From contig JADJFN010000037.1 in the NCBI GenBank assembly GCA_016708565.1, forward strand, positions 64,001 to 128,000: a DNA stretch of 64,000 bases, given 5' to 3'. Under the pieces are notes generated by a model. It ran no database searches. It had not been told where the DNA came from and worked only from the letters and a program-made list of their open reading frames with translations. The number at the start of each line of letters is the position of its first letter. Position 1 is the first letter of the stretch. This DNA is from Myxococcales bacterium (lineage in GTDB: Bacteria > Myxococcota_A > Polyangia > Haliangiales > Haliangiaceae). Both the position numbers and the translations under genes were made by a program. Of this stretch, positions 18,527 through 26,397 are shown piece by piece.

Positions 18527-19540
18527 GTGCACTTCATCGACGAGGCGACGATCCACGTGAAGGCCGGCGACGGCGGCGACGGCTCGTCGGCGATGCGCCG
18601 CGAGGACAACGTGCCGCTGGGCGGTCCGTCGGGCGGCGACGGTGGCAACGGCGCCAGCGTGGTGTTCCGCGCCGACGTCCAGCTCGGCTCGCTGCTCGAC
18701 TTCCGCTACAAGCGCCACTACAAGGGCGAGCGCGGCGAGCACGGCCGGGCCAAGGATCAGTACGGCGCGGCCGCCGAGGATCTGGTGCTGCGGGTGCCGG
18801 TCGGCACGGTGATCTACGACGCCGACACCGGCGATCTGCTGGCCGACCTCGCCACCGACGGCGCGCGCGCGGTCGTGGCCCAGGGCGGCAAGGGCGGCCG
18901 CGGCAACATCCACTTCAAGACCCCGTGGAACCAGGCGCCGCGCACCTGCGAGCCGGGCACGCCGGGCCAGGAGCGCACGCTGCGCCTCGAGCTCAAGCTG
19001 CTCGCCGACGTCGGCTTGCTCGGCTACCCCAACGTCGGCAAGTCGACGTTCATCTCGCGGGTGTCGCGGGCCCGGCCCAAGATCGCCGACTACCCGTTCA
19101 CGACGCTGGCGCCCAACCTGGGGGTGGTGCGGCTGTCCGACGAGCGCAGCCTGATCATCGCCGACATCCCCGGGCTGATCGAGGGCGCCGCCGAGGGCGC
19201 GGGGCTCGGCCACCAGTTCCTGCGCCACGTCGAGCGCTGCCGCGCGCTGCTGCACATCCTCGACGACACCTACACCACCGGGCCCGAGCGCGATCCGCTC
19301 AAGGACTTCGACGTCATCAACGCCGAGCTGGCCCGCTACGCGCCGCACCTGGCCGACAAGCCGCAGCTGGTCGTCCTCAACAAGCTCGACGCCGGCACCA
19401 CCCACGGCTCCGTCGACGAGCTGACGGCGCAGTTCGCGGCCCGCGGCATCACGCTGCACACCATGTCGGCCGCCACCGGCGAGGGCGTCGACGCGGTGAT
19501 CGCGCGGCTGTGGGACCTGGTGCATCCGCGGCCGGAGTGA
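18527..19540 (+). CDS. obg: GTPase Obg/CgtA
   Basis: C-terminal 337 aa of track ORF 16832..19540. GTG start gives VHFIDEATIHVKAGDGGDGSSAMRREDNVPLGGPSGGDGGNGASVVF (Obg fold), then GYPNVGKST...DIPGLIEG...NKLD GTPase motifs. Confidence 0.9.
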   Translation: MHFIDEATIHVKAGDGGDGSSAMRREDNVPLGGPSGGDGGNGASVVFRADVQLGSLLDFRYKRHYKGERGEHGRAKDQYGAAAEDLVLRVPVGTVIYDADTGDLLADLATDGARAVVAQGGKGGRGNIHFKTPWNQAPRTCEPGTPGQERTLRLELKLLADVGLLGYPNVGKSTFISRVSRARPKIADYPFTTLAPNLGVVRLSDERSLIIADIPGLIEGAAEGAGLGHQFLRHVERCRALLHILDDTYTTGPERDPLKDFDVINAELARYAPHLADKPQLVVLNKLDAGTTHGSVDELTAQFAARGITLHTMSAATGEGVDAVIARLWDLVHPRPE

Positions 19541-19575: not shown

Positions 19576-21510
19576 GTGCCGCGGTTCGAGCAGCGCGCCA
19601 CCGGCCGGTTCTGGGAGGTCGAGGTCGACGATCGCGTCGTCACGACGTGCGTCGGGGCCATCGGCGGTGACCCGCCCAAGCCCGCCACCGTCGAGCACGC
19701 CGACGCCGACGCGGCCTACTACGCCGCGACCTCCGCGATCCGCCAGCAGCGCCGGCGCGGCTTCGTCGACGCCGGCCCGGCCCAGGTCCTCGCCGGCGCC
19801 GAGCCGTGGACCGGCGCCGGCTCGACCATCCTGCTCGACGAGTTCTTCGACCGCGGCGACGACCGATTCGGTCTCGAGCTGCGACGCGCGACCGCCGCCG
19901 CCAAGCTCGGCGCGCTGGCCGAACGCTGGTATCGCGATCCCCGGCCGTGGGCCCGGGCCCAGCTCCTGGCCTACCTCGACGACGGCTGCGATCGCCCGCA
20001 CCACAAGCAGCTGATCAAGAAGCTGTTCAAGCTGGCCGAGGCCGCCGACGACGATCGCGCGATGGCCGGGTTCCTGGTCGCGTTCGATCGCCTGACCCGG
20101 AGGTCGTTGGTCGCGGTCACGCGCTACGACTGGCAGACCCGCGTCACCACCACGACCCACGTGCTGCGCGACGATCCCAGCGTCATCGAGAGCCTGGTCC
20201 GCGCCGGCCGCCCCGCGATCGACAGCCCTGTGTTCTCGCGGTCGACGCGGCGCTACCTGGCGCGCCGGGCCGCGCGCTACTTCCGCTACCTCGGCTACCG
20301 CGATCCGGCCCGCTACCGCGCGGCGATGCTGGTGGCGCTGGCCCGCTACACCGACGCCGCGCTCGGCACCACCACCCGGCTGCTCGACGCCTGGGGCCTG
20401 ACCCACGCGCTCTACGGCGGCTCGCCGGTGCTGGTCCACCACCCGCGCGGCCTGCGCCTCGCGCCCGATCGCCGGCTCGACGAGCTGACCCCGGCGCCGC
20501 AGATCCCGGCGGCGTGGCAGGACGCGTTCGCCGATGTCTGGCGCCTGTTCGTCGACGCGCGCAGCCGCGCGGTCCGGGCGTGGGCGCTGGCCTGGCTGCG
20601 CGCCCACCACGCCGCCGAGCTGGCCGCGCTGCCGTTCGCCGAGGTCGCGACGCTCCTGCGCTCGCCCCACGCCGACGTCGCCGCGCTCGGCGTCGAGCGG
20701 CTGCCGCACACCCGCGGCCTCGAGACCGTGCCGCTGACGATCTGGCTCGAGCTGCTCGCGCTCGGCGATCTCGACGTGGTCGCCGCGGTGGTCGCGACGG
20801 TCGAGCGGGTCGTGACGCCAGCCCGGACCACGCTCGCACAGTGCCTCGACCTGGCCGGCGCGCCGATCGCCGCGGTCGCGGAGCTCGGCCTCGCTTGGGC
20901 CAAGACCAAGCCGATCACCACCGTCGACGATCTGCACCTGATCGCGCGCCTGGCCCGGGCCCGGGTCGCCGCCGTCCGCGCCGCTGGCGCCGCGTGGGCC
21001 CTCGAACTCGCCGGCGCCCACCCCGCGGTCGACTACACCTTCGTCCGCGACCTGTGCGACGCGCCGTTCGCCGAGGTCCGCGCGCCGGCGCTCGCGGTTG
21101 CCGCCGCCGACCCGCGGTTCGCCGCGGTGCCGGCGCTGTGGTTCGCGCTCACCGAGTCGCCGTACGACGACGTCCGCGCCGCGGTGCTGGCCCACGCCAC
21201 CCGCTGGCACGCGACCGCCACGCCGGCCACGCTGCAGTGGGTGTGGTCGGCGGCGATCCTCGCGGTCCACCGCGGCAGCAAGACCAAGGCCGGCGTGCCG
21301 CGCGCGATCGCCGACCGCGTCGTCGCGCACCCCGACGAGGCCGAGCAGCTGCTGCCGATGCTCGCGCTCGCGCTGCACAGCGTCCGCGCCCCCGAGCGCG
21401 CGGCGGCGCTGGCGGCGCTGGCGCGCGCGCTCCACGGCGATCCGGCGCTGGCGGCCCGGGCCCGCGTCCACCTGCCGACGCTCACCGTCGGCGTCGAGGT
21501 GATCCGGTGA
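19576..21510 (+). CDS. WGR-domain protein with long HEAT/ARM-like helical repeat region
   Basis: N-terminus MPRFEQRATGRFWEVEVDDRVVTTCVGAIGGDPPKPATVEHADADAAYYAATSAIRQQRRRGFVD matches the WGR fold (named for its W-G-R residues). The rest is Ala/Leu-rich helical repeats. Stop overlaps the next gene start (GTGA). Confidence 0.7.
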   Translation: MPRFEQRATGRFWEVEVDDRVVTTCVGAIGGDPPKPATVEHADADAAYYAATSAIRQQRRRGFVDAGPAQVLAGAEPWTGAGSTILLDEFFDRGDDRFGLELRRATAAAKLGALAERWYRDPRPWARAQLLAYLDDGCDRPHHKQLIKKLFKLAEAADDDRAMAGFLVAFDRLTRRSLVAVTRYDWQTRVTTTTHVLRDDPSVIESLVRAGRPAIDSPVFSRSTRRYLARRAARYFRYLGYRDPARYRAAMLVALARYTDAALGTTTRLLDAWGLTHALYGGSPVLVHHPRGLRLAPDRRLDELTPAPQIPAAWQDAFADVWRLFVDARSRAVRAWALAWLRAHHAAELAALPFAEVATLLRSPHADVAALGVERLPHTRGLETVPLTIWLELLALGDLDVVAAVVATVERVVTPARTTLAQCLDLAGAPIAAVAELGLAWAKTKPITTVDDLHLIARLARARVAAVRAAGAAWALELAGAHPAVDYTFVRDLCDAPFAEVRAPALAVAAADPRFAAVPALWFALTESPYDDVRAAVLAHATRWHATATPATLQWVWSAAILAVHRGSKTKAGVPRAIADRVVAHPDEAEQLLPMLALALHSVRAPERAAALAALARALHGDPALAARARVHLPTLTVGVEVIR

Positions 21511-23201
21511 AGGTCGACCTCCGCTACCACGGCGGCTCGGGGCTGCGCGAGCTGGCCGGCGGCGCCGGCCTGCGGTTCGCGACCAACGTCGCGCGGCTGC
21601 CGGTCGCGTTCGACGGCGAGCTGGTCGAGCCGCTGCGCTTCCGCGAGGCGGTGAGCGCGCTGCACGAGATCGTCGTCGGCGATCTGCGGTTCCAGCCGCG
21701 CGACAAGCGCGCGTACCAGGCGTGGCTGGCGCGCCAGGCCGCCGACGAGGCCACGCTGCGCGCCGCCGCCACCGCGCGCGGCCAGGCCGACGCGCTGGCC
21801 CGGGGCCCCGGCGGCCCGCCGCCGCCCGGCCTCGAGGCCGACTTCCGCCGCCAGCACGACCTGTACTGGACCGCGCGCCGCGCCTGGGCCGTCGAGCTCA
21901 ACCGCAACGACCCGGCGATGTTCCGCGCGCTGGTGCCGTGCGATCCGGTCGTGACCGTCGCCCCCGACGTCGTCACCTTCGAGTGCTTCAGCAAGGACGA
22001 GTCGGCCTACGGCTGCCTGTCGGTCGATCGCGACGGCTTCCGCCCGGCCGCCGAGGTCGCGCTCGGCACCACCAACGTCGACTACTCGCTGGCGCTCTAC
22101 GAGCACTTCCAGACCATCCGCACCTACCGCCCGACCCGGCTGCAGGTCGACCCGGGCGGCGTCACGGCCGCGGTCGGCGCGGCGTCCGCGCTGCGCGAGG
22201 AGAAGATCGACCTGCCGCCGTCGTGGCTGCGCGGGTTCGGCCAGCTCCAGGCGGCGATGGCGCTGCCGGCGCGCCACGTCGAGCTGTCGCCCGACGTCGT
22301 CTACTCGCTGCTGGCGTACCTGCGCCGCCACCGTGAGCGCACCGGCCCGCGCGCGCTGCGGTTCGTGCTCGCGCCGGGTCAGCCGCCGCAGGTCGTGATC
22401 GAGCCGTGGGGCGTCACGCTCACCTCGCGCGGCGCGCCGTACGCCGGCGACCGCGCCGAGGAGATCAAAGTGTGGGGCCGGCGCCGCTTGCTGGCGTTCG
22501 CGCGCACGCTGCCGCTGGCCGAGCGCTACGACGTGCGCCTGCTCGGCACTGGCCTGCCGAGCGTGTGGATCGCGCGCATGGGCGCGCTGCGCCTGACCCT
22601 GGCGCTGTCGGGCTGGACCGCCAACGACTGGGCGCGGGGCTCGAACCTCGACGGCCACTTCGCCCGCTACACCGCCCACGCCAGCGCCGTCGACGCCGTG
22701 GCCCGGATCCTGGCCGCGCGCCACGTCGCGCCGATGGCCGCGCTGACCGCCGCCGTGCCCGAGCCGCGCGAGACCGTGCTGGCCGCGCTGTTCGAGCTGG
22801 CGCGCCGCGGCCAGGTCGCGTTCGACTACGCGATCGACGCCTACCGCTGGCGGCCGATCCTCGACGCCGCGATCACCGACGCCGCGCTTGGCCCCGAGCC
22901 CGAGGAGACGGTGGCCGGGCGCCGGCTCGCCGCCAGCGTCACGATCGAGCGCCGCGAGCCACTCGGCGACGGCCGCCGCGCGCTGGTGGCCAAGGTCGGC
23001 GGCACCTCGTGCGAGGCGGTGCTCGACGCCGACGATCGGCTCGGCCGCGCCCGCTGCACCTGCTCGTACTTCCATCGCTTCCGCCTGCGCGCGGGGCCGT
23101 GCCGCCACCTGCTGGCGCTGCGCCTCCACGCCACGGCGCCCGACGATCGCGCGCTGCCGGCGGCGCGCGTCGTCGCGTCCAACCCCCGGCGGTCGACCTG
23201 A
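21507..23201 (+). CDS. SWIM zinc-finger protein (MolR-like partner of WGR proteins)
   Basis: C-terminal 564 aa of track ORF 19806..23201; the upstream part of that ORF is an off-frame artefact. GTG start at 21507. C-terminus GTSCEAVLDADDRLGRARCTCSYFHRFRLRAGPCRHLLALRLH is a CxCxnCxH SWIM motif. Confidence 0.7.
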   Translation: MKVDLRYHGGSGLRELAGGAGLRFATNVARLPVAFDGELVEPLRFREAVSALHEIVVGDLRFQPRDKRAYQAWLARQAADEATLRAAATARGQADALARGPGGPPPPGLEADFRRQHDLYWTARRAWAVELNRNDPAMFRALVPCDPVVTVAPDVVTFECFSKDESAYGCLSVDRDGFRPAAEVALGTTNVDYSLALYEHFQTIRTYRPTRLQVDPGGVTAAVGAASALREEKIDLPPSWLRGFGQLQAAMALPARHVELSPDVVYSLLAYLRRHRERTGPRALRFVLAPGQPPQVVIEPWGVTLTSRGAPYAGDRAEEIKVWGRRRLLAFARTLPLAERYDVRLLGTGLPSVWIARMGALRLTLALSGWTANDWARGSNLDGHFARYTAHASAVDAVARILAARHVAPMAALTAAVPEPRETVLAALFELARRGQVAFDYAIDAYRWRPILDAAITDAALGPEPEETVAGRRLAASVTIERREPLGDGRRALVAKVGGTSCEAVLDADDRLGRARCTCSYFHRFRLRAGPCRHLLALRLHATAPDDRALPAARVVASNPRRST

Positions 23202-23229
23202 TGTATCGTCCCTCGCACCTCCCGTCCTG

Positions 23230-23242
23230 CAAGGAGATCCGC
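23230..23242 (+). repeat. retron a2-like inverted repeat (left arm)
   Basis: caaggagatccgc is the exact reverse complement of 23438-23450. Confidence 0.55.
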
Positions 23243-23437
23243 GCGCACGAGCCCACTATGCTGCGGCGTTCCGCCGTGGCGGGACTTGCTCCACCATTGC
23301 TCACCCACGCCCGATTTTCTTTTGGGCCCTATGCGGTGCTAGCGCTCCTCACTGAGACGACCACGAGAGTCTTGGGAGCCGCTAGCACCGCCGGGCCCTC
23401 GGTGATCGGTCGCGGTCCTGCGCACGAAGTCGAGCGA

Positions 23438-23450
23438 GCGGATCTCCTTG
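23438..23450 (+). repeat. retron a1-like inverted repeat (right arm)
   Basis: gcggatctccttg. Overlaps the TTG start of the RT ORF. Confidence 0.55.
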
Positions 23451-25097
23451 GAGGGCGGGAGGCACGACACTGACATGGGGTTCTGGGACAAGGTCAAACG
23501 GTTCTTCGGCGGCGGCGGCGCGCTGCAGCCGGACCCGTCGGCGCCCACTGCGGCACCGCCGTCGACGCCCACGCCGTCGACCCCGGCGCCGGCCCCCGCG
23601 CACACCGCCCCTGCGCCGCCAGCCGCGCGCACCGCACCCGCGCCGACCTCGACCGACGACAGCGCGCGCTTCCGCAACCCGGCCATCCTCGGCCTGTCCG
23701 CCGCCGAGCTGCGCAAGCGCGCGCTGCGCATCAACCCGTACCAGACGCCGTGGATCGGCCGGGTCGACACCATCCCGCCGCAGAGCGACGAGCGCACCGC
23801 GATCATCGACCGCGGCCTGATCCTGCGCGGCCTGCTCACCGCCGCGCAGATCGAAGAGATCCACCGCGTCGGCGACCTGTGGCTCGCCCACCACGACGCG
23901 ATGCGCCTGGCCGCCGCCGCCGGCGCCGCGTCGGGCGAGGCCGCGGTCGCCGCCGAGCGCGCCCGCCGCGCCGAGGCCAAGCGCGCCAAGCAGGCCGCGG
24001 CCGCCGCCCGCGCCGCCGCCCGCGCCGCCGCCGTCGCCGCGCGCCGCGCCACCGACATCATCTTCGTCGGCCGCGGCGTGTCCGCCGGCCTCGCCGACCG
24101 CCGCAGCCACGTCGAGCAGCTCGCCGCCGCCGGCCTGCCGGTCCTGGCCGCGCCCGCCGATCTCGCCGCCGCGCTCGGCCTGACCGTGCCGCGCCTGCGA
24201 TGGCTGTGCTTCCACGCCGACGCGCCCGCGAAGACCCACTACACGTACTTCACGATCCCCAAGCGCTCGGGCGGCACCCGCAAGCTGGCCGCGCCGCACC
24301 GCCAGCTCGCCGCGGCCCAGCGCTGGATCTTCGATCAGATCCTCGCGAAGCTGCCGATCACCGACGCCGCCCACGGCTTCGTCCCCGGGCGCTCGACGGT
24401 GACCAACGCCCGGCCCCACGTCGGCCAGCGCATCGTCATCAACCTGGACCTGGCCGACTTCTTCCCGTCGATCACGTTCCCGCGCGTCCGCGGCCTGTTC
24501 GCCTCGCTCGGCTACTCGCCGGCGATCGCGACGCTCCTGGCCATGCTCACCACCGAGGCGCCGCGGGTCGAGGTCGAGTTCGCCGGCCGCACCCACTACG
24601 TCGCCACCGGTCCGCGCGCGCTGCCCCAGGGCGCGTGCACCAGCCCGACCTTGGCCAACCTGGTCGCGCGCAAGCTCGATCGTCGCCTCGGCGGCGCTAC
24701 CCGCAAGCTCGGCTGGACCTACACCCGCTACGCCGACGACCTGACGTTCTCGGCGCCGGCCGCGGGCTCGGCCCAGGTCGCGCTGATCTTCGCCCGGGTC
24801 CGCGCCATCGTCACCGCCGAGGGCTTCGCGGTGAACGAGGCCAAGGGCCGGGTCCAGCGCGGCGGCCGCCACACCGTCACCGGCCTGGTCGTCAACGATC
24901 GGCTCGCCGTCCCGCGCGAGCAGGTGCGCCGGGTCCGCGCGATCCTCCACGGCGCCCGCACGACCGGGCTGGCCGCGCAGAACCGCGCCGGCCATCCCGA
25001 CTTCCGCGCATGGCTGCAAGGCACGATCGCCTACATCCACATGGTCGACCCCGCGCGCGGCGCCGCCTTCCAGGCCCAACTCGACGCGCTATCGTGA
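23448..25097 (+). CDS. retron-type reverse transcriptase with ~240-aa N-terminal extension
   Basis: RT motifs: YTYFTIPKRSGGTRKL; QRWIFDQIL; HGFVPGRSTVTNARPHVG (NAxxH); LDLADFFPSI; LPQGACTSPTLANL; YTRYADDLTFS (YADD); RHTVTGLVVN (VTG). NAxxH plus VTG are retron hallmarks. The N-terminal 240 aa carry a Pro/Thr/Ala-rich linker and a helical Ala/Arg/Lys-rich segment. TTG start at 23448; alternative ATG at 23475. Confidence 0.85.
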   Translation: MEGGRHDTDMGFWDKVKRFFGGGGALQPDPSAPTAAPPSTPTPSTPAPAPAHTAPAPPAARTAPAPTSTDDSARFRNPAILGLSAAELRKRALRINPYQTPWIGRVDTIPPQSDERTAIIDRGLILRGLLTAAQIEEIHRVGDLWLAHHDAMRLAAAAGAASGEAAVAAERARRAEAKRAKQAAAAARAAARAAAVAARRATDIIFVGRGVSAGLADRRSHVEQLAAAGLPVLAAPADLAAALGLTVPRLRWLCFHADAPAKTHYTYFTIPKRSGGTRKLAAPHRQLAAAQRWIFDQILAKLPITDAAHGFVPGRSTVTNARPHVGQRIVINLDLADFFPSITFPRVRGLFASLGYSPAIATLLAMLTTEAPRVEVEFAGRTHYVATGPRALPQGACTSPTLANLVARKLDRRLGGATRKLGWTYTRYADDLTFSAPAAGSAQVALIFARVRAIVTAEGFAVNEAKGRVQRGGRHTVTGLVVNDRLAVPREQVRRVRAILHGARTTGLAAQNRAGHPDFRAWLQGTIAYIHMVDPARGAAFQAQLDALS

Positions 25098-25160
25098 TCG
25101 ACGCCCCGGTCGACGCACCGCCCGACTGCGCCGCCAACGGGGCCCGCGCGCCACACGCTG

Positions 25161-25346
25161 ATGGTCGCGGCCGCCGACATCGCCGATCCCGCGGCGCGCA
25201 CCTACGACATCACCGGCGAGGCCACCCACGGCCACACCGTGATGCTCACCGCAGCCGACTTCGCGGAGCTGGCCGCCAACCGCCGGGTCACCGTGACCTC
25301 GAGCGCGGTCGGTCACAGCCACGCCGTCACGATCACCTGCGTCTGA
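25161..25346 (+). CDS. small His-rich protein downstream of the RT (possible retron accessory)
   Basis: 61-aa ORF MVAAADIADPAARTYDITGEATHGHTVMLTAADFAELAANRRVTVTSSAVGHSHAVTITCV. Strongly GC3-biased codons match genomic usage. Lies 64 nt after the RT stop. Confidence 0.45.
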   Translation: MVAAADIADPAARTYDITGEATHGHTVMLTAADFAELAANRRVTVTSSAVGHSHAVTITCV

Positions 25347-25521
25347 GCCGTCGCCGCGATCTCGACAAAATTCATCGGGATTTCAGACTTCTGCAAGATC
25401 GTGACGGCGGTCAAGGACGGGGGCGCGGCAGTTTGATCCGCTCCCTGCGGGGTGTTACAACTGCTCTATTCCACTCGAATTTGGCCGACCCGTCCCTCGG
25501 CCATCGTGGACCGGTTCGCCG

Positions 25522-26397
25522 GTGCGGAGCCCCATGCGTCAAACCCAGATCTCCCGCCGCGGTCTCGACCGCACCTCCGTGACTGTCCTCGCGCTGGCGC
25601 TCGCCGCTGGCTCCGTCGCAGCGCAGCCTGGTGCGACCCCGACCGGCACGCCGACGACGCCCAAGCCACCGACCACCGCGCTGCCCGCCGCGACCGGCAC
25701 CCCGGCGACCGGCACCCCGGCGACCGGCACGCCGACGACCGGCACGCCGACGACCCCGACCACCGGCACGCCGGCCACCGGCACGCCGACGACGGGCGCC
25801 CCGACGCCAGGCACCACGCCGACCGATCCCACCGATCCCAACCAGACCGCCACCGCCGACACCGTCGACCCCGAGTCGATGCCGGTCAACCTGCGGCTGC
25901 GCCGTCTCGAGCAGCGCGTGCAGGCCCTCAAGGAGCGCGCCTGGCGCGCCAAGGCCCGCACCACGCAGCTCAAGGAGGCCGTCATCGGCGGCGGCGTCGG
26001 CGCCCAGGCCACGCTCGTCCACGAGAACAAGATGGGCAGCTCGTTCCGGCTGATCCGCCTGGTCTACGCCCTCGACGGCACCCAGGTGTTCGCCCGCTCC
26101 GAGGACACCAGCCCCAACCTGTACAAGACCAAGTCGTTCGACATCCTCACCGGCCCGATCTCGCCCGGCAGCCACTCGATCAGCGCGCTCGCGGTGTACC
26201 GCGGCCACGGCTACGGCGTGTTCAAGTACCTCAACAAGTACACGTTCACCGTCCGCGCCAGCCACACCTTCACCGCCGCCGAGGGCAAGGCCACCCGCAT
26301 CGAGGCGTCGGGCTTCGAGAAGGGCGGCCGCACCACGCCGCTCGAGAAGCGCCCCGCGATCGACTTCAAGGTGACCGCCGGGACCGGGGAGAAGTAA
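25522..26397 (+). CDS. secreted protein with Thr/Pro-rich linker and C-terminal beta-rich domain
   Basis: Signal-like N-terminus and GTPATGTPATGTPTTGTPTT repeats. The C-terminal domain has protein-like composition. First gene of a co-directional operon. Confidence 0.6.
   Translation: MRSPMRQTQISRRGLDRTSVTVLALALAAGSVAAQPGATPTGTPTTPKPPTTALPAATGTPATGTPATGTPTTGTPTTPTTGTPATGTPTTGAPTPGTTPTDPTDPNQTATADTVDPESMPVNLRLRRLEQRVQALKERAWRAKARTTQLKEAVIGGGVGAQATLVHENKMGSSFRLIRLVYALDGTQVFARSEDTSPNLYKTKSFDILTGPISPGSHSISALAVYRGHGYGVFKYLNKYTFTVRASHTFTAAEGKATRIEASGFEKGGRTTPLEKRPAIDFKVTAGTGEK
25690..25810 (+). repeat. 15-nt tandem repeats (accggcaccccggcg) encoding TGTPA units
   Basis: Direct DNA-level reiteration visible in the sequence. 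Confidence 0.6.

Follow-up and report, generated by a model that had tools for sequence, protein, structure and literature searches.

The type XIII retrons include the elements in which multicopy single-stranded DNA (msDNA) was first found. In those sections of the retron classification that deal with it, the type (reverse transcriptase (RT) clade 10) has Mx162, Mx65, Sa163, and Ne144 as members and is defined by a protein of cluster 114 that combines a DEDE motif and a winged helix with a SWIM zinc finger (CxCx12CxH) at its C-terminus, by a WGR-like/HEAT-ARM gene usually located 5' of the cluster-114 gene, and by a distinct non-coding RNA (ncRNA) of its own (Mestre et al., 2020, NAR 48:12632, PMC7736814). 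In the current study, we describe a locus of this kind in a 64,000-nt stretch of DNA (hereafter the window; contig JADJFN010000037.1 of assembly GCA_016708565.1, positions 64,001 to 128,000 of the forward strand) from an uncultured Kofleriaceae/Myxococcales metagenome-assembled genome (MAG). Positions 19576–25097 of the window very probably hold a complete, apparently functional type XIII retron, whose four parts—a WGR-like/HEAT-ARM gene, a SWIM gene, the msr-msd ncRNA, and the gene for an N-terminally extended RT—all lie on the + strand.

The locus shares with type XIII, as described by Mestre et al. (2020), the three protein families, the SWIM CxCx12CxH and acidic motifs, and the gene order, as well as the terminal repeats, msr hairpin, and long msd stem-loop of the ncRNA, a Myxococcota host, and a vertical-looking pattern of inheritance. 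No feature of the locus breaks the definition, to which it is assigned by its protein families. Retron-Mxa1 (Mx162) and Retron-Sau1 (Sa163) belong to the same type and clade and, by their published descriptions, are likewise myxobacterial and vertically inherited and possess an N-terminally extended RT; the msDNA of Mx162 measures 162 nt, whereas approximately 125–135 nt are predicted here. The locus probably falls in a separate, widespread sub-lineage that is marked by an MGFWDK...IPPQSDERT N-terminal module and set apart from Mx162 by description. The msDNA of Retron-Mxa2 (Mx65), at 65 nt, is far shorter than that predicted for this locus. The RT of Mx65, which Mestre et al. place in the same type, is substituted at the N of the NAxxH motif, whereas the RT described here retains it (NARPH). 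Outside the type, the closest RT of solved structure is that of Retron-Eco1 (Ec86, type II-A; structures 7V9U, 7XJG, and 8QBK), which follows the same msr-msd-RT logic. Ec86 employs a nucleoside deoxyribosyltransferase (NDT)-like effector, its RT lacks the 250-amino acid (aa) N-terminal extension, and its a1/a2 stem is approximately 12 nt long. In contrast, no NDT gene occurs at this locus, where the partners of the RT are the WGR/HEAT and SWIM proteins.

Gene set and type assignment

An initial annotation of the window, made from the sequence alone, had recognized a retron-like element at 23230–25346 and proposed it as a candidate retron type worth defining. The identification as a retron is strongly supported: the repeat-bounded region is the msr-msd RNA, the gene beside it encodes a retron RT, and none of the three observations that the annotation had named as speaking against a retron (an RT from another clade, repeats lost in close relatives, no conserved structure between the repeats) was made. 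The proposal of a new type is not supported, as the gene set (WGR-like/HEAT-ARM, SWIM, ncRNA, and N-terminally extended RT) is exactly that of type XIII. PADLOC offers hidden Markov models (HMMs) for all three type XIII proteins, and all three of these type XIII-specific models were matched at the locus, so that the gene set is the established one of this type. The accompanying remark that no canonical effector is adjacent is wrong for type XIII, both of whose partner genes lie directly upstream (19576–23201), and the annotated span took in one non-component while omitting two components, the proper span being 19576–25097. The + strand gene series was set by frame analysis of GC content at third codon positions (GC3) together with translations, and all open reading frames (ORFs) of the system are intact, with strong GC3 periodicity.

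The RT gene (23475–25097, + strand), identified by the PADLOC RT_XIII model, Pfam, and its motifs, encodes 540 aa that are 100% identical, over the full length, to a deposited MAG protein (Myxococcales/Kofleriaceae). The conserved start is ATG 23475 (MGFWDKVK...); the length of 549 aa given initially belongs to an ORF opened mechanically at TTG 23448. The protein matches RT_XIII (PDLC02956) with an E-value of 1.5e-154 and 513.5 bits (residues 143–539 on profile positions 47–423 of 469), and the runner-up PADLOC model scores 354 bits. Pfam RVT_1 is matched at 1.4e-16, and the motifs that had been noted in the RT are all in place, namely NARPH at residues 311–315 (24405–24419), YADD at residues 419–422 (24729–24740), and VTG at residues 468–470 (24876–24884).

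A non-retron RT (from a group II intron, a diversity-generating retroelement (DGR), an abortive infection (Abi) system, or a defense-associated RT (DRT) system) standing beside a fortuitous inverted repeat would be an alternative reading, and a perfect 13-nt inverted repeat is indeed not rare in a window of 72.6% GC. We nevertheless regard this reading as having next to no probability. The group II intron model TIGR04416 scores 53 bits, below its cutoff of 300 bits, and two DRT models score 26 bits (Drt2) and 24 bits (Drt3a), compared to 200–219 bits for the NCBIfam retron models and up to 513 bits overall; no DGR or Abi RT model is among the matches listed for the RT; NAxxH and VTG are both present; Rfam scans returned no intron RNA; and the repeat covaries across 58 sequences. 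By profile scores, then, the RT sides with retron models and not with group II intron or DRT models. Searches of the PDB likewise return retron RTs first, the closest being the Ec86 RT (3.5e-40; residues 216–493 of the RT).

Approximately 250 aa precede the RVT_1 domain and are conserved among homologues. In this extension, MGFWDK is followed by a variable Pro/Ala linker and a helical module (approximately residues 65–215) that leads into the RT domain; the conserved sequence after the linker reads ILGLS...WIGRVDTIPPQSDERTALIDRGL...EIHRVGD, after which comes a charged helix. An exhaustive HMMER search with RT residues 60–215 yielded 163 clusters, ten of which were examined: RVT_1 is present in the four of 573–706 aa, and the other six are shorter, truncated sequences reaching into the start of the RT domain. 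The module has no Pfam match, and its AlphaFold2 (AF2) model consists of helices throughout, one of them approximately 70 residues long (predicted local distance difference test (pLDDT) 68.5; predicted template modeling score (pTM) 0.35), so that the extension looks like a scaffold or arm and not like an enzyme. On these grounds—no Pfam domain, fusion to an RT or an RT fragment in every representative examined, and a helical model—its candidacy as the effector is unsupported.

Both partner genes were found upstream of the ncRNA. The first (19576–21510, + strand; 644 aa), resembling Mestre cluster 216 and identified by PADLOC and its GC3 frame signal, encodes a WGR-like N-terminal domain and HEAT/ARM-like repeats and matches HEAT-ARM_XIII at 1.8e-157 (523.6 bits; profile positions 7–556 of 564). 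The second (21507–23201, + strand; 564 aa), resembling Mestre cluster 114 and identified by PADLOC and Pfam, encodes a SWIM zinc-finger protein, and its GTG start overlaps the stop codon of the first (GTGA). The SWIM protein matches SWIM_XIII over nearly the entire model (1.2e-168, 559.9 bits; profile positions 1–503 of 509) and Pfam SWIM at 7.8e-5, and carries CTCSYFHRFRLRAGPCRH, with CxCx12CxH encoded at 23055–23108. Its DEDE residues (D146, D154, E159, D192, and E231, spaced as Dx7Dx4Ex32D...E) show no variation across 33 homologues. Of the effector candidates put forward initially, the upstream WGR/SWIM pair was thus correctly chosen; the RT extension (a predicted helical scaffold) is unsupported in this role, and a 61-aa downstream ORF (a gene remnant, described below) is rejected.

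A sequence search of the PDB found no relative for either partner protein. The AF2 model of the SWIM protein (mean pLDDT 67; pTM 0.66) displays a clamp-like fold and a winged helix; residues 250–545 mostly have block-mean pLDDT values of approximately 80–94, and residues 191–237 are poorly predicted. The best structural matches to this model are PCNA and the 9-1-1 checkpoint clamp (Foldseek, PCNA: E = 4.5e-8, probability 1.00), and the best 60 matches include no transposase or RNase H-fold protein. Judging by the order of strands and helices in the model, from which the boundaries were read, residues of approximately 148–370 may form a double clamp domain whose first half, modeled with less confidence, would contain the DEDE residues. 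The cluster-114 SWIM protein has been described as possibly transposase-derived, in passages of the paper that do not mention a clamp fold (PMC7736814), and a literature search on SWIM, WGR, and sliding clamp together returned nothing relevant.

Structure and conservation of the msr-msd RNA

The msr-msd ncRNA extends from 23213 to 23467 on the + strand, as delimited by fold, conservation, and covariation. The perfect 13-nt inverted repeat that had been noted at the a2/a1 positions, caaggagatccgc at 23230–23242 and gcggatctccttg at 23438–23450, has the coordinates given for it, and constitutes the core of longer, 38-nt arms that are 84% complementary. These arms, defined by the inverted repeat and by covariation, are the a2 arm at the 5' end of the msr (23213–23250, + strand) and the a1 arm 3' of the msd (23430–23467, + strand), which together form the terminal stem. 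The right repeat was thought to overlap the RT start codon, but the extended arm ends 8 nt before ATG 23475. The significance of the 13-nt repeat alone was rejected, as the window holds approximately 8 perfect ones within 300 nt versus approximately 5 in first-order Markov simulations; the case for the msr-msd therefore rests on the extension of the arms to 38 nt, on the z-score of the fold, on retention of the RNA in 75 of 80 related loci, and on covariation.

Between the arms, GC content falls to 64–65% from 78% in the flanks, and the nested hairpins and T-rich tract (ATTTTCTTTT, 23314–23323) described initially are present. A 271-nt region folds with a minimum free energy (MFE) of −153.8 kcal/mol (z = −8.9 relative to dinucleotide shuffles). 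Its inner elements are a conserved msr hairpin (23260–23280, + strand; present in the MFE fold), with the sequence GCTGCGGCG-TTC-CGCCGTGGC, and a long msd stem-loop (23305–23415, + strand; helices 5 and 6) composed of a conserved base (CC.C..CCGAT / ATCGG..G.GG), a T-rich bulge, and a variable central hairpin. By neither gathering nor E-value thresholds does any Rfam 15 family match the ncRNA, and the weak matches obtained are due to chance in GC-rich coding sequence.

Conservation was examined at 80 loci collected in a scan with an RT alignment, with one genome taken per species. An nhmmer profile of the upstream region, which hits the window once, detected an RNA homologue directly 5' of the RT in 75 of these loci. 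The type XIII proteins are encoded there as well, and of the five loci without a hit, three lie on contigs that begin only within the RT gene. Consensus structure and covariation were derived from an alignment of 58 ncRNA sequences. The RNAalifold consensus comprises 48 pairs, and compensatory double changes occur in 36. Paired cells amount to 94.7%, as opposed to 36–48% in controls with slid pairing partners, and cells changed on both sides number 396 versus 42–115; the covariation score of 0.453 compares to at most 0.111 in the controls and was reached by none of 500 shuffles. The a2/a1 stem supplies 29 of the 48 pairs (25 with compensatory changes), and the msr hairpin and the base of the msd stem supply the rest. 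Helix 4, the msr hairpin, is 99.3% paired, with double-sided changes in three of its seven pairs. Sequence variation in the central msd hairpin (41% identity versus 74% in the conserved core) precludes its alignment, yet it folds in 58/58 sequences, with MFE values of −34 to −74 kcal/mol. The motifs flanking the stem, CGAG and GTCG, are invariant, and every invariant position of the ncRNA is retained at this locus. Thus, two concerns raised with the initial annotation are removed: the repeats are conserved and covarying in relatives, and the region between them keeps both its msd hairpin and its covarying pairs. In two Sorangium loci (L023 and L048), the ncRNA is separated from the RT start by an extra segment of approximately 170 nt that contains GGCG/CTTGGCG-like repeats and is absent from other Sorangium loci.

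The same data bear on whether the locus might be a decaying or inactive relic that no longer makes msDNA, a reading that we hold to be unlikely. The small gene adjacent to the RT is visibly decaying, and solo RT homologues devoid of RNA and partners exist in Minicystis rosea (L014) and at one further locus (L029), as such a reading would anticipate. Against it, the three ORFs are full length relative to their HMMs, the catalytic and retron motifs are intact, and the invariant ncRNA positions are kept; moreover, the ncRNA is 99.6–100% identical to that of relatives whose flanking genes have diverged by 5–10%. In the comparison to a relative with an 88% identical RT, for example, a single base distinguishes the two ncRNAs (99.6% identity), against a DNA identity of 90–95% for the flanking genes.

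Predicted branching guanosine and msDNA

Within the CGAG motif (23248–23251), C43, G44, A45, and G46 are invariant in 58/58 sequences; CGA pairs with an invariant TCG (23430–23432), leaving G23251 unpaired at the stem end. Because it is invariant and located at the stem end, as is the branching G of retrons, G23251 (+ strand) is the predicted branching (priming) residue, in a GAGC context. The priming G is found in GAGC in Mx65 and in CAGC in Mx162 and Sa163 (PMC6868368); this locus and all 58 aligned relatives display GAGC and thus share the context of Mx65 and differ from Mx162 and Sa163.

The distance from this G to the start of the template is held at 174–192 nt in 58/58 loci, and from this constraint an msDNA of approximately 125–135 nt is predicted. 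Given how retrons work and where the stem lies, it would be the reverse complement of the msd template (23300–23429, − strand), with its 5' end probably templated at 23428 or 23429 and a less certain 3' end. Folded as DNA, this predicted msDNA has a z-score of −4.6.

Distribution and genomic neighborhood

The 80 loci belong nearly all to Myxococcota, including Sorangium, Polyangium, Chondromyces, Labilithrix, Minicystis, Myxococcus, Pyxidicoccus, Archangium, and Kofleriaceae. By tblastn, the SWIM gene is present in 71 of them and a WGR/HEAT gene lies 5' of it in 67, and the order WGR/HEAT, SWIM, RNA, RT is kept in every locus with enough upstream DNA other than L014 (Minicystis rosea, CP016211.1) and L029 (CAWHDJ010000018.1). 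These two are solo RTs, 60–66% identical and with the N-terminal module present, and are flanked, over 7 kb in each direction, by no ncRNA homologue, WGR/HEAT gene, or SWIM gene; by eye, the frame upstream of the RT in L014 looks like an FKBP-type isomerase. Four further loci (L019, L033, L039, and L079) carry the full type XIII set in MAGs labeled Thermoanaerobaculia or Acidobacteriota, and could represent mis-binned Myxococcota contigs or transfer beyond the phylum.

Upstream of the retron, the gene for the Obg GTPase occupies 18527–19540, and the retron operon begins 36 nt after obg. This linkage is kept in three close relatives (L081–L083, RT 88–95% identical) and in none of the 80 distant loci; being confined to close relatives, obg is therefore not part of the system.

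Downstream, a 61-aa ORF (25161–25346) in the frame of the RT follows the TGA stop of the RT gene and has high GC3. It had been listed as a possible effector, but is a 5'-truncated, frameshifted remnant of an unrelated gene for an exported protein and not a retron component, as judged from sequence comparison. The remnant, of an HxH-repeat protein gene, spans 25094–25346, its GTG start overlapping the RT stop. The closest relative, L083 (RT 95% identical), has in this place a gene of 90 aa whose GTG start likewise overlaps the RT stop; in the window, 20 nt of it are deleted after 25149, which puts the GTG frame and the ATG 25161 frame out of register. The whole segment is missing from L081 and L082 (RT 88% identical), and none of the 80 distant loci holds a homologue. 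The family has only seven database relatives and no Pfam match, and the 61-aa ORF itself has no significant Pfam, PADLOC, or NCBIfam match. Its full-length relatives (P0123, P0124, and P0127; 119–133 aa) possess a signal peptide, a lipobox-like cysteine, and two NHGH/GHSH repeats. The 20-nt deletion, the absence from relatives, and the exported full-length family are the reasons for calling the ORF a remnant; the frameshift, the exported family, and the absence from the 80 loci and from L081 and L082 rule it out as an effector.

These observations also decide against a new minimal retron type, in which the RT extension or the 61-aa ORF would be the effector and the WGR and SWIM genes unrelated neighbors. 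Such a type might be suggested by the length (approximately 250 aa) and conservation of the extension, and by the high GC3 of the small ORF and its position abutting the RT stop. It is very improbable, however, given that the small ORF is broken by the 20-nt deletion, is absent from the 80 loci and from the relatives with 88% identical RTs, and has exported, lipoprotein-like full-length relatives, and that the N-terminal module is predicted to be all-helical, lacks a Pfam match, and belongs to a family in which the WGR/HEAT and SWIM genes are almost always present, these genes matching type XIII-specific HMMs at 1e-157 and below.

Further 3', the intergenic segment at 25377–25534, preceding ATG 25535, shares 100% identity with L083 and 96.8% with L081, compared to 90–95% for the neighboring coding DNA. 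Neither a significant fold (z = +0.35) nor a match in Rfam was obtained for this segment, which is possibly a conserved promoter or leader.

Proposed mechanism and function

The anatomy described above is consistent throughout with the steps of retron biochemistry, which are taken here from established retron knowledge. The ncRNA would be transcribed with the RT, probably within the operon, given the gap of only 11 nt between the SWIM stop codon and the a2 arm. Pairing of the 38-nt a2 and a1 arms would set the invariant G23251 at the stem end; the RT would recognize the conserved msr hairpin, prime from the 2'-OH of G23251, and copy the msd leftward from approximately 23428 to approximately 23300. 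RNase H would then remove the template, leaving a hairpin msDNA of the predicted length joined 2'-5' to the msr RNA. The two partner proteins would bind the RT-msDNA particle, the WGR-like/HEAT-ARM protein as a scaffold or DNA-end reader and the SWIM protein, with its predicted sliding-clamp-like double domain, winged helix, and zinc finger, as a DNA-binding sensor or effector. By analogy with other retrons, the complex would guard against phage interference, growth arrest following once the msDNA or RT is perturbed. The gene set, the structure of the RNA with its covariation, and the family assignments are thus shown for this locus, and msDNA synthesis, the ends of the msDNA, the protein-msDNA contacts, and a role in defense, with abortive infection as the default, are inferred.

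Several points weigh against the reading of the locus as a functional type XIII defense retron. The effector step is conjecture, and we found no functional or structural study of a type XIII retron in the literature; the retron census paper mentions neither this type nor Myxococcus. The WGR domain of the first partner scores weakly in Pfam (18.2 bits over residues 7–68, with a cutoff of 22 bits), and the clamp-like fold of the SWIM protein, predicted in one medium-confidence model, is a lead and not a finding. No promoter-like or terminator-like site emerged from a scan that covered only sigma-70-type consensus sequences, a result that is uninformative for this GC-rich organism. In close relatives, the locus adjoins the housekeeping gene obg and no obvious defense island. 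Finally, the system is spread across Myxococcota, and, in the part of their paper concerned with type XIII inheritance, Mestre et al. report vertical inheritance and a correlation of 0.78 with 16S and suggest domestication (PMC7736814); a domesticated role agrees with this pattern no less well than classical mobile defense does.

A serious alternative is thus that the same retron biochemistry serves a vertically inherited, domesticated module for a host DNA transaction, such as repair, replication-stress signaling, or development, in place of phage defense; we consider this possible, though short of probable. It draws on the inheritance pattern and obg context just mentioned, on the lack of mobile-element or defense genes near the locus in close relatives, on a gene order conserved over 80 loci from Sorangium to Kofleriaceae, on the clamp-like and WGR-like DNA-reading domains, and on the identity of the best matches to the SWIM model, PCNA and the 9-1-1 checkpoint clamp. 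Against domestication stand the rapid evolution of the msd hairpin sequence, whose 41% identity is as expected of a decoy or sensor under arms-race pressure, the listing of the components as defense genes by PADLOC, and the finding that every retron type tested acts in defense, in the portion of the literature consulted. Defense by abortive infection remains our default for this type XIII retron, by analogy.

Significance and outlook

As a single instance, the locus matters little: PADLOC-type annotation would call it automatically, and its RT protein has already been deposited. It is a clean, intact example of type XIII, and its main value lies in the comparative data set that it provides for an uncharacterized retron type. 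Experiments could be guided by the 58-sequence covarying alignment, the CGAG/GTCG motifs, the predicted branching G, the G-to-template distance, and the clamp-like SWIM fold.

One further proposal, which we offer tentatively and regard as doubtful, is that the SWIM partner combines a PCNA/9-1-1-like clamp fold with a winged helix and a zinc finger, is not a transposase-derived nuclease, and reads or holds the msDNA hairpin together with the WGR-like (PARP-type DNA-end-reading) HEAT protein and the helical arm of the RT, the whole system acting as a vertically inherited, msDNA-dependent, checkpoint-like sensor. If this were true, Myxococcota would harbor, in the oldest retron lineage known, a checkpoint-like machine for sensing DNA and not a mobile toxin-antitoxin defense.

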